A stretch of DNA of 21,808 bases from IMG/VR virus record IMGVR_UViG_2690316278_000015; one strand, written 5' to 3'. The notes below the pieces were generated by a model. The model was not told the origin of the DNA. It saw only the letters and a program-made list of their open reading frames with translations, and did no database searches. Origin of the DNA: a virus (taxonomy: Duplodnaviria > Heunggongvirae > Uroviricota > Caudoviricetes). Shown one piece after another: positions 12,489 through 21,808 of this stretch. The position numbers and the translations under genes were made by a program. The first letter of the stretch is position 1. Each line of letters begins with the position of its first letter.

Positions 12489-13061
12489 TTAGGGATTTTC
12501 CGTGTGATAAGACAAATATTGTGAAAGAGAAGATGAAAGGGTATAGAGATTGTAATACTCTTCCCGCAATAATTTAACTTTAGGTGGTGAGTATTTAATA
12601 TTGTATGCAAGCTGTGTTGAAAGAGTACGTAATCTCGATAATGAATAATAACTCTTTACGATGGCATCTACTTCTTTTTTTGGGAGTGATGCTAATTTTT
12701 CTAATTGGGAATAATATACATCATCATGCAAATAAGAAACGGCAGTTGCTACTCTTTTAATAGCTTCTGTATCTTCAGTTGGAAGAGGAATACATATTTC
12801 ATATGTGCCTAACACCTGAGACTCATCGCCACCAGTAGCAAGAGCTAAAAGGTTATTGTTGATTTCGCTCAATAAGATTACACGCATCTTAAAAACATCA
12901 TCTGAACTTTCTTTCCATTTATCATATGCGTTATAGCCTATTTGGCCTGCAAATAACAACATAGCAACGATGACGGATGCAGCCTGCCAATCAAGCCTGT
13001 TAAAAAAAATACGAATCGAGGTTTTTAAATAAATAAAGAAAGAAGATATTCGAGGTAACAA
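12489..13061 (-). CDS. Opposite-strand moron: membrane-anchored protein of unknown function (candidate superinfection-exclusion / injection-blocking protein)
   Basis: 190-aa minus-strand ORF filling the whole 584-nt space between the tape measure stop (12478) and the gpM-like start (13063). Start is TTG at 13059-13061 with AAGGA 7 nt upstream; alternative ATG starts would truncate the predicted N-terminal TM helix (WQAASVIVAMLLFAGQIGY). About 33% GC in two 100-nt samples, lower than flanking tail genes. No plus-strand ORF covers the interval. Confidence 0.55.
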   Translation of the reverse strand: MLPRISSFFIYLKTSIRIFFNRLDWQAASVIVAMLLFAGQIGYNAYDKWKESSDDVFKMRVILLSEINNNLLALATGGDESQVLGTYEICIPLPTEDTEAIKRVATAVSYLHDDVYYSQLEKLASLPKKEVDAIVKSYYSLSRLRTLSTQLAYNIKYSPPKVKLLREEYYNLYTLSSSLSQYLSYHTENP

Positions 13062-14684: not shown

Positions 14685-18142
<3,458 letters not shown>

Positions 18143-18299
18143 TAAATAATTCAGGGATTATTAACTGTAACCTCATTTCAAAAGGATACATAAATGAAAT
18201 CTAATGAACGTACTTTCAATAGTACCAGTACTAACCCATTCAGTATTAGCGGAAAAGAAACAATTGGAATGAAGAAAAGGATTTACAGGAGTAAGAGCT

Positions 18300-18596
18300 A
18301 TGGCACAGGGATTACAATGTTGGAATGCAGCGGGTGTATTAGTAGTAGATCTGACTGATTATAACATACGTTTTATGGGTACTTATACTGTCAAGGCTAC
18401 TTCTGCACAGACCTATACTGTATCAGTACCAAATATGAAAACTACAGGCTGGTTTGTACACTATGCCCCCGCCAGTGATACCTTTAATGAGTGGTCAGCC
18501 TTTTGTAATAATGGGTCATTTACTGCGGTTTATTTGCCAACATATGCACCGTTAGCTGGTAACTACACTTTTAACGTATATAAGTGGACGGCGTAA
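18300..18596 (+). CDS. Hypothetical protein, paralogue 1 (single copy of a ~100-aa domain shared with the next gene)
   Basis: 98-aa ORF with AGGAG SD. N-terminus MAQGLQCWNAAGVLVVDLTDYN matches the N-termini of both halves of the downstream protein. Aromatic/Cys-rich. Confidence 0.6.
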   Translation: MAQGLQCWNAAGVLVVDLTDYNIRFMGTYTVKATSAQTYTVSVPNMKTTGWFVHYAPASDTFNEWSAFCNNGSFTAVYLPTYAPLAGNYTFNVYKWTA

Positions 18597-18597
18597 G

Positions 18598-19254
18598 ATG
18601 GCAGGTTTCGAGGTATATAATTCAGCGGGTGCACTGACTATAGATAGTACTAACAAGTCGATAATGACGGGTGCAGTAAAGGCCATGGGAAATCTAACTG
18701 ATACGGGATACTACACAGGCTTTACCTGTGCCTTCGGTAATGGTGGATCGCTCGGTTTCGTTATGCCATCAGTAGTAGCTAACAGGAACACAACACAGTA
18801 CTGGTTCCAGATACAGAAAGACGGGGCATGGTGTTTCCCTGGTGCCTATATGTTCCAGCCTGGCATGGGCAGGTTCATGACAAGTAGTCACACGGCTACC
18901 CCCACATCTGGTTTTCTTGATGTGTTCAGTGAAGAAGGTACTTTAATCTGGTCTGCTGCATCAGCGGCAACAATGCCACGTATCAGGGGATTTTTGACAG
19001 CACCTGCGGCTACCGATCTCAGTACTGCCATTACGGTAACGTCTCCAGTAGCTGATCCCTGGTTCTGCTGGTCACAATGTCCGGGGAACATATCAGATGA
19101 TGGTACAGTAATTGGGTACTCTGGTCTGGTTATCAGGCGTAATTCCAGTACTTCATTCAGTCTACAGTACGTTTCAAAGAACCAGAAAACCTACCGCCAG
19201 GCAATGGGGAATAATGGTATCCAGATAGCATTGGCGACATTTACAGGGTATTAA
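18598..19254 (+). CDS. Hypothetical protein, paralogue 2 (internal tandem duplication of the same domain)
   Basis: 218-aa ORF starting 2 nt after the upstream stop. Residues 1-20 (MAGFEVYNSAGALTIDSTNK) and about 106-125 (SGFLDVFSEEGTLIWSAASA) both match G[FL]xV[YFW]xxxGxLxxDxT. Confidence 0.6.
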   Translation: MAGFEVYNSAGALTIDSTNKSIMTGAVKAMGNLTDTGYYTGFTCAFGNGGSLGFVMPSVVANRNTTQYWFQIQKDGAWCFPGAYMFQPGMGRFMTSSHTATPTSGFLDVFSEEGTLIWSAASAATMPRIRGFLTAPAATDLSTAITVTSPVADPWFCWSQCPGNISDDGTVIGYSGLVIRRNSSTSFSLQYVSKNQKTYRQAMGNNGIQIALATFTGY

Positions 19255-19255
19255 T

Positions 19256-19297
19256 ACAATAACAATAACAATAACAATAACAATAACAATAACAACA
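19256..19297 (+). repeat. Hexanucleotide microsatellite (ACAATA)x6 plus one degenerate unit (ACAACA)
   Basis: Six perfect ACAATA units at 19256-19291, then ACAACA, then AAGGGA SD and ATG 19311. Intergenic. Confidence 0.95.
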
Positions 19298-19310
19298 AAG
19301 GGATTTCAGT

Positions 19311-19583
19311 ATGGATATCGGTGCTATTTTAGCTCTTGTTATTTCTGGATGCGTATTCCTTTATACTATCTTTAGAGATAATACAAAGGATACGAATGAT
19401 CTATTAACTCGCGTTGCTACTCTTGAAACTACCATTGCTGTACTGGAAAGTAGTATTTCCCGTATTGAGGATGATCAGGATAAGATGAGAGATACACTAA
19501 GTAAACTGGAAACACAAATCCATGAACTTGATGTTAAGATTGAAAGGATTATTGCAATTCTTCAGCAGAAACAACGACCATAA
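19311..19583 (+). CDS. Small membrane protein with one N-terminal TM helix and a C-terminal coiled coil (holin-like or i-spanin-like; function uncertain)
   Basis: 90-aa ORF; hydrophobic residues 3-20 (IGAILALVISGCVFLYTIF), then charged heptad-like region. Good SD. Convergent with the endolysin gene. Confidence 0.5.
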   Translation: MDIGAILALVISGCVFLYTIFRDNTKDTNDLLTRVATLETTIAVLESSISRIEDDQDKMRDTLSKLETQIHELDVKIERIIAILQQKQRP

Positions 19584-19633
19584 AAAAAGGCATAGTATGT
19601 CATTCGTACTATGCCTTTTCTTTATTTGTTTTT
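19582..19633. terminator. Bidirectional rho-independent terminator between convergent genes
   Basis: A7 tract (19582-19588), stem GGCATAGTA (19589-19597) / TACTATGCC (19607-19615) with 9-nt loop, then T-rich tract TTTTCTTTATTTGTTTTT. Reads as hairpin plus U-tract on either strand. Confidence 0.7.
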
Positions 19634-20071
19634 AAGTACTGCAATCATGGAATTCACACGGTTTGGTGTCTGCCTGTACCATAGAGAACACTTAGCCTGT
19701 TTAATTGCTTCAAGGTAATCATGTGCTTTCAGGGCTGCTAACATCTTACGGAATTTCTTCACCCCGCCAATACCTAACTGGAAGGTCATGATAATAATAA
19801 AATCATTCCAGTCATCGGGAAGATTTAACCCTAATGTCTGTACCTGCATAATTGTTTTGGCTAAATCGCGAGATAGTAACTTGTCTGCTTCGCTTTCAGT
19901 AATGCCAGTACTAAAATCTTCTCCCGCCTGAATTAAGTGACCATATCCAATAGTACTACATCCTAAACTATCAGCATATGGATAGAATTTCCCATTTCTG
20001 AAGTACTTCAAATTTGCCTGATACTCTTTAGTACCTTCATATTCTTTTAATCGTGTTTTTAAATCGCTCAT
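19622..20071 (-). CDS. Endolysin, T4-lysozyme-like (glycoside hydrolase family 24), no signal/SAR segment
   Basis: 149-aa minus-strand ORF. Motifs align with T4 lysozyme: catalytic Glu in LKEYEG, Asp in YADSLG, STIGYGH (T4: YTIGIGH), C-terminal SLWYRQTPNRV (T4: SRWYNQTPNRA). N-terminus is hydrophilic. Confidence 0.9.
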   Translation of the reverse strand: MSDLKTRLKEYEGTKEYQANLKYFRNGKFYPYADSLGCSTIGYGHLIQAGEDFSTGITESEADKLLSRDLAKTIMQVQTLGLNLPDDWNDFIIIMTFQLGIGGVKKFRKMLAALKAHDYLEAIKQAKCSLWYRQTPNRVNSMIAVLKNK

Positions 20072-20081
20072 TTACTAAATA

Positions 20082-20100
20082 CCTATAATGAATTTATAGG
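20082..20100. promoter_or_regulatory. Perfect 7-bp inverted repeat CCTATAA-N5-TTATAGG in the divergent region between endolysin and downstream + operon (candidate operator or mRNA hairpin); contains a TATAAT hexamer
   Basis: Arms 20082-20088 and 20094-20100 are exact reverse complements. TATAAT at 20084-20089. Right arm overlaps the AGGA SD of the gene starting at 20108. Confidence 0.5.
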
Positions 20101-20107
20101 AATATTT

Positions 20108-20542
20108 ATGATGAGTGAATGGAAATACTCGGATGATTGGAGCGAGGAGGAAATGTTATCCGGTGAATATGCTGGTTTCGTTTATATCTTTCAGTTTGAG
20201 GATGGTTCTAATTATGTCGGTGCTAAGCAAATCTATCAGCGGGTTAAGGATGCGAGAAAGCTAAAGCCCACTTCAAAGGAAAATGGCTGGCGTGAGTACC
20301 TCAGTAGTTCCAATGTCGTTAAAAACAAAATTGAAAATGGTGAACAGTACTCAAAAACGATTCTATGGTGCTTCGCAACTATGCGAGAGGTAATGATTGT
20401 AGAGGCAATACTGATCCTTCATCAGATGCTTAAACCGGAATGTTTGAATCTGGCAATGATGAGTAAGATTAGATCACCAAATGCAAAGGATAAAAAAAGA
20501 CTACTCGGAATAGTACAGGAACTATTGGAGTACTTGAATTGA
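20108..20542 (+). CDS. Small GIY-YIG-like nuclease domain protein (putative; possible homing-endonuclease relative lacking a DNA-binding extension)
   Basis: 144-aa ORF. GFVYIFQFEDGSNYVGAK fits G-I-Y-x(9-11)-Y-I-G spacing (cf. I-TevI GIYQIKNTLNNKVYVGSAK); Arg 7 residues after YVG; later Glu (MREVMIVEAIL) and Asn (ECLNLA) in positions expected for the catalytic Glu/Asn. The usual His after the Arg is not evident. Confidence 0.45.
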   Translation: MMSEWKYSDDWSEEEMLSGEYAGFVYIFQFEDGSNYVGAKQIYQRVKDARKLKPTSKENGWREYLSSSNVVKNKIENGEQYSKTILWCFATMREVMIVEAILILHQMLKPECLNLAMMSKIRSPNAKDKKRLLGIVQELLEYLN

Positions 20543-20551
20543 GGTAAATAT

Positions 20552-21210
20552 ATGGCAAGTGGAATAAATGGNNNNNNNNNNNNNNNNNNNNNNNNNNNNN
20601 NNNNNNNNNNNNNNNNNNNNNNATACAAACGCAGGGAGTTAGATTAAATAATCAATTCCAGAATGAAATAATTAAACGTTCCAAGCTACTATCCCAAAGA
20701 ATGCAGGGTGATTTGAATAATAGCGTTGACCGTGGGGCNNNNNNNNNNNNNNNNNNNNNNNNNNNNNNNNNNNNNNNNNNNNNNNNNNNNNNNNNNNNNN
20801 NNNNNNNNNNNNNNNNNNNNNNNNNNNNNNNNNNNNNNNNNNNNNNNNNNNNNNNNNNNNNNNNNNNNNNNNNNNNNNNNNNNNNNNNNNNNNNNNNNNN
20901 NNNNNNNNNNNNNNNNNNNNNNNNNNNNNNNNNNNNNNNNNNNNNNNNNNNNNNNNNNNNNNNNNNNNNNNNNNNNNNNNNNNNNNNNNNNNNNNNNNNN
21001 NNNNNNNNNNNNNNNNNNNNNNNNNNNNNNNNNNNNNNNNNNNNNNNNNNNNNNNNNNNNNNNNNNNNNNNNNNNNNNNNNNNNNNNNNNNNNNNNNNNN
21101 NNNNNNNNNNNNNNNNNNNNNNNNNNNNNNNNNNNNNNNNNNNNNNNNATGATGGTGTAAGGGTAATTATGAGCGGTATTCAGGGAACATTCAGGATAAG
21201 TAGACAATGA
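20552..21210 (+). CDS. Hypothetical protein, interrupted by two N runs (extent and frame continuity unverifiable)
   Basis: ATG 20552 with GAGGT SD (MASGING...) runs into N run 20572-20622; open frame resumes (IQTQGVRLNNQFQNEIIKRSKLLSQRMQGDLNNSVDRG) into N run 20739-21148; an open frame exits that gap and stops at 21210, overlapping the next ATG (ATGA). Could be more than one gene. Confidence 0.3.
20572..20622. other. N run (51 nt)
   Basis: Continuous n characters. Confidence 0.99.
20739..21148. other. Masked/unknown sequence (N run, 410 nt)
   Basis: Continuous n characters. Confidence 0.99.
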
Positions 21211-21518
21211 ATTTTGAGCAACATTATGGTGATTTAATAAGCAAGATTAAGCTAAATGGCATGACACCAGATGGTAATAGTATGCCAATTAACAAATGTT
21301 TTCTTGATAAGAAATTTCAAAAGGTCGTTAAGAAAAGTAATTATCAGATTGATAGCTATATGAACGTTATTTATGAGAAGAAGAAAGATTTCAAAGTTGG
21401 TGAAGTACTTGAATGGGAATTACAGGGTGAAAAGATGCCTGTATTTCTAATTGAGAGTAAAAAGCTCTTTGTGAAGGGTAAACATTTTTGGGTATATGCC
21501 GTGGGGATTATTGAATGA
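21207..21518 (+). CDS. Hypothetical protein (Lys-rich, 103 aa)
   Basis: ORF translationally coupled on both sides (ATGA overlaps at 21207 and 21515). A+T-rich. No motif recognised. Confidence 0.5.
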   Translation: MNFEQHYGDLISKIKLNGMTPDGNSMPINKCFLDKKFQKVVKKSNYQIDSYMNVIYEKKKDFKVGEVLEWELQGEKMPVFLIESKKLFVKGKHFWVYAVGIIE

Positions 21519-21808
21519 TTAGTATATTGATTGAGTTTCTGAAGTCAGGATTGGATTTTTTCATTAAGAAGAAAACTATTGAACAGGAAGTAAAGAAAAC
21601 GAATGTAGAAGGGCAGATTGAAACGAATAAAGAAGAGATTGAAAAGGTAACATTCCACTGGCGTAATGCCCTCGGTTTTGTACTAACCCTTATCATTCTC
21701 TATAACTGGATCATAGTACCAGTACTTGATGCTTTTGGAATTATTGTGATCCAAGTTCCATTAGGACAACTTTTGCAAGTGCTATTGATTATGGTTGGTG
21801 GAAGCTGA
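21515..21808 (+). CDS. Putative holin-like membrane protein, 3'-partial (runs off the window end)
   Basis: Open frame of 97+ aa: charged, coiled-coil-prone N-terminal 40 aa, then at least two hydrophobic segments (ALGFVLTLIILYNWIIVPVL; GIIVIQVPLGQLLQVLLIMVGG). No stop before window end. Confidence 0.5.
   Translation: MISILIEFLKSGLDFFIKKKTIEQEVKKTNVEGQIETNKEEIEKVTFHWRNALGFVLTLIILYNWIIVPVLDAFGIIVIQVPLGQLLQVLLIMVGGS

Follow-up and report, generated by a model that had tools for sequence, protein, structure and literature searches.

Endolysin and putative holin genes on opposite strands in an uncultured family of enterobacterial prophages

In the lysis cassette of phage lambda (S, R, Rz/Rz1), a small membrane holin is combined with a soluble cytoplasmic muramidase that depends on it, and the genes are co-directional in one late transcript. 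Such clustering is not functionally required, because in phage T4 the endolysin gene e and the holin gene t lie far apart and are separately transcribed. As long as it stays in the cytoplasm, a soluble endolysin does no harm, and it is the holin that determines when lysis occurs. Here, we analyzed the lysis region of IMG/VR virus record IMGVR_UViG_2690316278_000015, a stretch of 21,808 nucleotides (nt) that derives from a prophage of Shigella sonnei. The whole stretch is called the window, and positions without a label are those of the window. The locus resembles the lambda cassette in that a temperate, siphovirus-like element encodes, in its late region, a small predicted membrane holin together with a soluble muramidase of the cytoplasmic, holin-dependent type. 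It differs from lambda in that the endolysin gene, a one-gene unit that has a terminator of its own, is on the other strand and is separated from the holin gene by genes for a nuclease, a neck protein and a protein of 103 amino acids (aa); moreover, the predicted holin belongs to family PF11351 and no spanin genes were found. As in T4, a T4-type GH24 lysozyme would be expressed independently of the holin gene. Unlike in T4, only 1.4 kb separates the two genes, for which a common divergent control region is possible, and the holin is unrelated to T4 T.

Two other systems were compared with the membrane proteins of the locus. Phage Mu encodes the "releasin" gp25 (DUF2730), a 99-aa protein with N-out/C-in topology and an anionic cytoplasmic domain (PMC9239132). 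Genes for DUF2730 proteins lie no more than five genes away from those of endolysins; some of these endolysins are soluble, and why they should need such a protein is unexplained (PMC9239132). The PF11351 holins include the gene-transfer-agent holin that names the family and TeaA of Vibrio phage ICP1, which, expressed alone, acts as a holin: it collapses the proton motive force, and dinitrophenol triggers it (PMC7182436). From the comparisons below we consider it probable that the window carries the native lysis layout of a prophage family, in which a one-gene endolysin unit and a 97-aa holin, encoded in a divergent late operon, share a palindromic region, and lysis is timed separately by the holin. 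This is an ordinary system of a holin and a T4-type lysozyme in an unusual, lineage-wide gene order, and not a new lysis mechanism.

Gene order and gene products of the lysis region

The endolysin gene is located on the minus strand (19622-20071). It converges with the plus-strand gene of a 90-aa membrane protein (p90, 19311-19583), the last gene of the tail-side operon, across a bidirectional terminator, and it diverges from a plus-strand operon that starts at 20108 and ends with the gene of the 97-aa holin candidate (21515-21808). This arrangement had been described in an earlier note on this DNA, and it was confirmed with its coordinates. Related loci were collected by searching IMG/VR with the lysozyme and with p90, which yielded 30 loci. 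The gene order was the same in all of them: a tail-tip gene, variable small genes, p90 (plus), the lysozyme (minus), and then a GIY-YIG nuclease, a 192-aa protein, a protein of ~103-115 aa and the 97-aa protein (all plus). Annotated E. coli copies have an identical layout. Across the 30 loci, identity falls to 56% for the lysozyme, 37% for p90 and ~32% for the 192-aa protein. In every locus 1.4 kb and three genes separate the lysozyme gene from the holin gene on the other strand. The claim of the earlier note that the lysis genes are split, with the endolysin inverted relative to the holin, therefore holds for the whole set, and a canonical pair of adjacent, co-directional holin and endolysin genes in one transcript was found in none of these loci. 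Because order and orientation are kept in all 30 loci and in the E. coli copies, with lysozyme identity down to 56%, the inverted layout is ancestral to the family and is neither a recent inversion nor the result of a homing-endonuclease insertion; "inverted" in the sense of a derived rearrangement does not apply to a layout that is fixed family-wide. By eye, holin and endolysin alleles are shuffled relative to each other, and there is therefore no evidence for specific pairing.

The 149-aa endolysin is a soluble T4-type (GH24) muramidase. It matched PF00959 (Phage_lysozyme) with 45.7 bits (E 1e-11, cut-off 22.3), and its best matches in the PDB were T4 lysozyme and structures of the gp5 lysozyme domain. 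D34 and T40 align on D20 and T26 of T4 lysozyme in BLASTP. E12, within the motif KEYEG that is kept in 27 of 27 relatives, was taken as the equivalent of E11 of T4 lysozyme by inspection only, the BLASTP alignment beginning after E12. Hydropathy analysis revealed no signal segment, no signal-arrest-release (SAR) segment and no other hydrophobic segment; in Kyte-Doolittle plots with 17-residue windows the top mean was 1.36, at residue 91, and none reached 1.6. Because it has no hydrophobic segment, the lysozyme is of the soluble, holin-dependent endolysin type.

The 97-aa protein encoded at 21515-21808 (plus strand) is the last conserved product of the divergent operon. It had been regarded as a 3'-truncated membrane protein, but its open reading frame (ORF) is complete and the window ends on its TGA. 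The protein matched PF11351 (GTA_holin_3TM) marginally (25.0 bits, cut-off 24.8), and 9 of 12 scanned family members matched PF11351 and no other family (E up to 0.01). A further match was obtained to phrog_3427, annotated "holin" (E 1.9e-4). According to hydropathy, an amphipathic N-terminus is followed by a hydrophobic stretch over residues ~51-97, which was read as two adjacent transmembrane (TM) segments. As in ICP1 TeaA and the gene-transfer-agent holin, PF11351 is the only family matched by the 97-aa protein and most of its relatives. Differences are the score at the cut-off and the two clear hydrophobic segments, where the family name has three; the holin role is assigned here from sequence. 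On these grounds the 97-aa PF11351 protein is predicted to be the holin. Both this protein and p90 had been named as holin candidates. The first holds up with its PF11351 matches, and the second does not, as p90 has one TM segment, an acidic coiled coil, generic coiled-coil matches and a weak resemblance to DUF2730.

No co-directional holin gene adjoins the endolysin gene, and this statement of the earlier note survived the filling of the sequence gaps. The runs of N in the window are assembly gaps of arbitrary length, which were filled from complete copies of the element. Two of them lie in the gene of the 192-aa protein (p192; 20552-21210, plus strand), which spans 659 nt in the window and 579 nt in complete copies (for example locus L003, 8942-9520, minus strand). 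The completed protein is very basic and has no TM segments by hydropathy. Its predicted fold is similar to that of a solved member of the HK97 gp10 family, and p192 is therefore a predicted neck (head-tail connector) protein of this family. Since the operon carries the gene of a virion neck protein, it would be a late operon. The p192 gene lies beside the holin gene, and the genes for head-to-tail joining, which come after the capsid gene, are ~14 kb distant from it; this is an unusual position for a connector. Between p192 and the holin lies the gene of the 103-aa protein (21207-21518, plus strand). This protein matched nothing in Pfam, PHROG or NCBIfam, and its single-sequence structure model was unusable (predicted local distance difference test 56). 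The gene is present in 18 loci and is replaced in the others by a gene for an unrelated protein of ~115 aa.

Terminator and palindrome flanking the endolysin gene

The stop codons of p90 and the lysozyme gene are separated by 38 nt. This gap contains a bidirectional intrinsic terminator (19585-19619, both strands), a hairpin with a 15-bp stem that is preceded by an A-tract and followed by a T-tract and thus has T-tracts on both strands. Folding energies on the two strands were -23.7 kcal/mol (z -6.4) and -19.1 kcal/mol (z -4.8). The hairpin and the U-tracts on both strands are kept in 22 of 22 distinct versions of the junction. The stems comprise at least four unrelated sequences, with compensatory changes; by clade they read GGCATAGTA..., GGGATAGTA... 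(a compensatory exchange of C-G to G-C), GGCAAGC... and AAGGGGC...GCCCCTT. One clade has a stem that extends over the final codons of p90 and its stop codon. Because the structure is conserved and the sequence is not, there is good evidence from this comparison that the hairpin would work as a bidirectional terminator. In two close relatives, L039 and L040, the hairpins are exact reverse complements of each other (GGGATAGTATCAATTACGGTACTATCCC and GGGATAGTACCGTAATTGATACTATCCC), flipped in place.

On the other side, the start of the lysozyme gene and that of the GIY-YIG gene (20108) are 36 nt apart (20072-20107; 33-57 nt across all clades). This gap and the first codons of both genes form an inverted repeat of ~50 nt (20064-20118, both strands), a palindromic divergent control region in which the two Shine-Dalgarno sequences and the two start codons are paired around an AT-rich loop containing TATAAT (20085-20090). 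The plus strand folds with -19.6 kcal/mol (z -7.1) and the minus strand with -14.0 kcal/mol (z -4.8). An equivalent hairpin was found in every clade. In some clades both arms have changed in concert (CCTCA/TGAGG, ATATTCC/GGAATAT), and one clade has a different 20-bp stem. Where the GIY-YIG gene is internally deleted, the palindrome is intact. Other genes of the element have similar AAGG(A/T)AT...ATG start regions, and start regions from 16 other genes of the window were joined back to back in 240 chimeric pairs. These folded with a mean of -8.5 kcal/mol (standard deviation 3.5), and 1 of the 240 was as stable as the palindrome, which argues that the symmetry is selected.

The earlier note had assigned the endolysin its own promoter and had placed it within 20072-20107. 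The first part stands: with a terminator on one side and a divergent operon on the other, both on the plus strand, a minus-strand gene can hardly lack a promoter of its own. The second part does not. Because both Shine-Dalgarno sequences occupy the 36-nt gap, it cannot hold a full promoter, and a -35 element for either gene would fall in the coding sequence of the other. A scan with the sigma-70 consensus gave no site in the gap, and the number of sites was no higher than in shuffled sequence. A weak minus-strand promoter match inside the GIY-YIG gene (20239-20211) was rejected, as by inspection it is not conserved in other clades. An Rfam scan gave nothing at the gathering score. The motif AGGTATTTA was tried as the mark of a regulon and discarded, since it is not enriched in the window (10 matches, 9 expected). 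A looser palindrome pattern had a few further sites in relatives, at least one of them inside a small ORF and probably there by chance. The palindrome may be an operator, it may be the centre of two divergent promoters that overlap, or it may form an RNA hairpin and so mask the translation starts on read-through transcripts.

It was considered whether there is no dedicated lysozyme promoter at the palindrome at all. The palindrome would then serve as a hairpin or a processing site in the RNA, or would merely result from the similarity of two ribosome-binding sites, and the plus-strand operon would be fed by read-through or antitermination. The lack of a detected sigma-70-like site fits such a reading, as does the fact that the arms are the two Shine-Dalgarno regions, whose AAGG(A/T)AT...ATG form is shared by other genes of the element, and that similar back-to-back starts occur at other divergent pairs of the family. 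However, a minus-strand gene needs a minus-strand promoter, the gap is the only conserved non-coding DNA upstream of it, and the minus-strand genes further downstream are variable cargo. In addition, the hairpin stability was matched by only one chimeric pair, and feeding by read-through is difficult to reconcile with a terminator that is strong and conserved on the plus strand. We regard this explanation as unlikely.

Two other divergent pairs with back-to-back ATACC...GGTAT start regions were noticed, a methyltransferase gene with a membrane protein gene (L003 6974-7007) and a methyltransferase gene with a 69-aa gene (L050 ~23823-23869). In the complete element L051, an unannotated ORF that follows a terminator has an upstream arm complementary to its Shine-Dalgarno sequence (18143-18169; AAATACTCCTAT, 7 nt, ATAGGAGTAT).

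In the layout that we consider probable, the endolysin gene would form a transcription unit by itself, with its start at or beside the palindrome and its end at the hairpin shared with p90. The operon of the GIY-YIG, neck, 103-aa and holin genes would start back to back with it, in or next to the palindrome, so that one control region could switch on endolysin and holin although they are not co-directional. We infer these promoter positions and the co-regulation. The endolysin would accumulate harmlessly in the cytoplasm, and the time of lysis would be set only by the triggering of the holin. Because a soluble endolysin is harmless until the holin fires, the two genes need not be co-transcribed.

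p90 and other readings of the endolysin gene

The p90 gene adjoins the endolysin gene in 30 of 30 loci. Its product has an N-terminal TM segment (residues ~4-21) followed by an acidic coiled coil of ~69 aa (14 D+E, 11 K+R). Within the family, R22 and D23 are invariant. Since basic residues follow the TM segment, p90 is predicted to be N-out/C-in with a cytoplasmic coiled coil, unlike an i-spanin; this topology is derived from the positive-inside rule only. The sequence ISGC was examined as a lipobox and rejected, as relatives have L, G, V or A in place of Cys14 and the hydrophobic stretch runs on beyond it. All Pfam matches of p90 are of the coiled-coil type and below the curated cut-offs. DUF2730 (PF10805) was matched by 7 of 13 p90 relatives, with a best E of 3.9e-4, the same range as generic coiled-coil families. 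DUF2730 was absent from the best 25 families for the window p90, and precomputed DUF2730 matches are marked "weak". An hhalign comparison of 13 p90 relatives with 15 gp25 relatives gave a probability of 25% (P 7.5e-4) over 37 columns, which run from the end of the TM segment into the first part of the helix; the probability with gp25 alone was 2.7%.

In architecture, p90 fits DUF2730: ~90-100 aa, few residues before an N-terminal TM segment, basic residues after it and an acidic helical C-terminus. As with the endolysin gp22 and with gp25 of Mu, an acidic helical domain predicted to be cytoplasmic is encoded near an endolysin, and there is a weak sequence resemblance. The differences are that the element here is not transposable, that the endolysin lacks a SAR domain and a holin is present, and that p90 lacks Pfam membership in addition to the low hhalign probability. 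The Mu-like context of DUF2730 was not found, as there is no transposase. p90 is therefore gp25-like in architecture and position, and its membership of the family is unproven. We infer that p90 is most likely a membrane-tethered lysis accessory with a cytoplasmic coiled coil, like the DUF2730 proteins of Mu-like phages, and neither a holin nor a spanin. A more far-reaching model joins this idea to the control region: the ~50-nt palindrome would be a symmetric switch, either a DNA operator for a dimeric late regulator or an RNA hairpin that hides ribosome-binding sites and starts on read-through, which couples endolysin and holin, and p90 would be a releasin-like factor working with a soluble endolysin outside Mu-like phages, which so far are the only setting of that family. 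This model is speculative and, taken as a whole, improbable.

Alternatively, p90 may be the partner that releases the endolysin, as a single-TM holin or pinholin or as an i-spanin, and the convergent pair would be the real lysis unit. A membrane protein that adjoins the endolysin in every locus invites this idea, and p90 matched phrog_739, "Rz-like spanin" (E 2.7e-5), gave weak XhlA matches and has one relative named "Holin" in UniRef. However, the family matches are the same sub-threshold coiled-coil type as described above, the predicted topology is contrary to that of an i-spanin, and no ORF for a lipoprotein partner is embedded in or adjacent to p90. A bona fide holin-family protein is encoded nearby, and p90 is a poor holin candidate. 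We consider a role as release partner decidedly unlikely.

The search of the full genome for spanin genes that the earlier note had proposed gave no candidate in the window or in the complete element L051. Lipobox pattern scans covered window positions 18000-21808, the flank beyond the holin and L051, and atypical lipoboxes could escape them. One conserved lipoprotein was noticed (L051 16540-16920), far from the lysis genes and without a C-terminal TM segment.

Upstream of p90, a perfect tandem repeat, (ACAATA) x 6.7, is located between the gene of a 218-aa protein and the p90 ribosome-binding site (19256-19295). Its copy number varies among S. sonnei assemblies, with spacers of 30-72 nt in steps of 6, which makes it a variable-number tandem repeat. 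Read in triplets the repeat is an (AAN)n tract, and AAN-rich tracts precede p90 in most clades. At the repeat, Rfam gave a weak CrcZ-like match (25 bits, gathering score 95). (AAN)n tracts bind the distal face of Hfq, and translation of p90 might therefore be sensitive to Hfq.

Could the lysozyme serve another purpose than lysis, as a virion-associated or tail lysozyme for entry, or as a moron? Its best PHROG match is phrog_13211, "baseplate hub subunit and tail lysozyme", in the lysozyme domain (E 2.3e-39), and T4 gp5 is among its PDB matches. However, gp5 and the T4 endolysin share the fold, so that these matches do not discriminate, and the 149-aa protein is a stand-alone catalytic domain without a domain for attachment to the virion. 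It is the sole glycoside hydrolase annotated in the complete 33-kb element L051 and, in every locus, shares a short gene block with the holin. A function outside host lysis is thus very improbable.

The GIY-YIG gene (20108-20542, plus strand), the first of the divergent operon, encodes a 144-aa nuclease with a SegE-type domain (PF19835, 60.7 bits, cut-off 25). The tyrosines of the GIY and YIG motifs, the Glu and the Asn are conserved in 23 relatives, and no PDB match was obtained by sequence. In 28 of 30 loci the gene is syntenic, with 40-97% identity, and diverges in step with its neighbours. The other two (L020 2095-2330; L021) have an in-frame-looking internal deletion that joins the first ~16 codons to the last ~25. 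The sporadic distribution expected of a mobile homing endonuclease was not observed, the two exceptions being internal deletions and not clean absences. We therefore regard the gene, judged from its distribution, as a syntenic core gene and not a fresh mobile insertion. The two deletions with an intact palindrome suggest that the nuclease is dispensable and that its start region is kept. The remaining idea, that lysozyme and GIY-YIG genes are a recently acquired mobile cassette, with an endolysin gene brought in or turned round by a homing endonuclease and an orientation that is accidental, draws on the SegE-type homing-endonuclease domain and on the occurrence of the nearest sequenced-phage lysozymes (~47% identity) in unrelated jumbo phages, but it is largely refuted by synteny and scarcely credible, given that in each of the 30 loci both genes occupy this site and point the same way, with protein identities of 40-60% for distant clades, that purifying selection acts on the nuclease motifs, that the terminator and the palindrome on either side vary together with the clades, and that lysozyme and palindrome stay where the nuclease gene is deleted.

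The prophage family and the meaning of the layout

The lysozyme protein of the window is found without any difference in hundreds of assemblies, among them that of S. sonnei 53G (HE616528.1), where the element adjoins mipA-yeaE-yeaD-gapA. In S. sonnei genomes an insertion sequence (IS) splits the gene of the large terminase subunit (L013 6884-9989), and the window begins directly after it (1-1461). In several strains the tail-tip gene (14723-18142) is also split by an IS. Because of these insertions the window is regarded as part of a decaying, IS-damaged and defective S. sonnei prophage, yet its lysozyme shows no change in hundreds of assemblies. A megablast search with the lysis region and the rest of the window gave no DNA match in 50,697 phage records and none in complete E. 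coli genomes; only a sensitive DNA search mode found E. coli relatives, at 65-70% identity. The closest lysozymes in sequenced phages are those of the jumbo phages mentioned above, no phage protein has more than 31% identity to the capsid protein, and tblastn of p90 against phages gave nothing at E ≤0.01. Hosts of the family are Enterobacter, Escherichia, Shigella, Klebsiella, Raoultella, Cronobacter, Citrobacter, Kosakonia, Pantoea and others. The element encodes a terminase and a portal of lambda type together with a serine recombinase, and it lacks a transposase. The family consists of uncultured serine-recombinase prophages of Enterobacteriaceae of ~33 kb.

A complete member, L051 (8456-41595; E. 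coli 02B21CPO003B, NZ_CM151386.1, 1811455-1844594), is a 33-kb element that splits yegD. A large serine recombinase gene is located at one end and the holin gene at the other, as the last gene before the attachment junction with the split yegD, and nearly all genes point in one direction. No genes for replication, a repressor or an antirepressor could be recognised in the ~10 kb that separate the recombinase gene from that of the small terminase; this part holds only an HNH endonuclease gene, a split methyltransferase gene, genes for secreted proteins or lipoproteins, and unknowns. Past the 3' end of the window, the S. sonnei copy carries variable cargo between the holin gene and host mipA (L003 6248-8283), namely genes for a 264-aa protein whose N-terminus is weakly HNH-like, a multi-pass membrane protein of 151 aa (minus strand) and a DNA methyltransferase (phrog_3820, E 3e-103). 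Other family members have different genes at this spot, which resembles a hotspot for cargo or defence genes beside the attachment site. Between 18.3 and 21.8 kb, the plus-strand ORFs of the tail side encode proteins of 98 aa, 218 aa (DUF8377) and 90 aa (p90). The endolysin had been called the only minus-strand gene of its region, and in the whole window it is not the only one: a 190-aa minus-strand ORF (12489-13061) is called as a gene in all assemblies examined. Located between the tape-measure and distal tail genes, it is a second lone inverted gene in the plus-strand late region.

Several points weigh against the layout as we propose it. The holin score only just reaches the Pfam cut-off, the link between p90 and DUF2730 is statistically weak, and the sigma-70 scan placed no promoter in the gap. 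No spanin gene or other gene for disruption of the outer membrane was found in the window or the complete element, so that the lysis system as described is incomplete or uses an unrecognised protein. The S. sonnei copy, with an IS in its terminase gene, is probably inactive. Finally, there is no cultured or induced relative among the phage records, and the functions rest on homology.

With these points taken into account, the native layout of separate endolysin and holin units is still the reading we favour. It indicates that a fixed, inverted single-gene endolysin unit can be a stable design of a whole prophage lineage. It also corrects the annotation of these prophages, in which the holin, the neck protein and p90 are all labelled "hypothetical". 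The palindrome and the bidirectional terminator together form a compact regulatory element. p90 offers a second, non-Mu context for the role of DUF2730-like membrane-tethered coiled coils beside endolysins, a question left open by the Mu study (PMC9239132). The conserved palindrome and the gp25-like neighbour of the endolysin are the only parts of this locus that deserve experiments.

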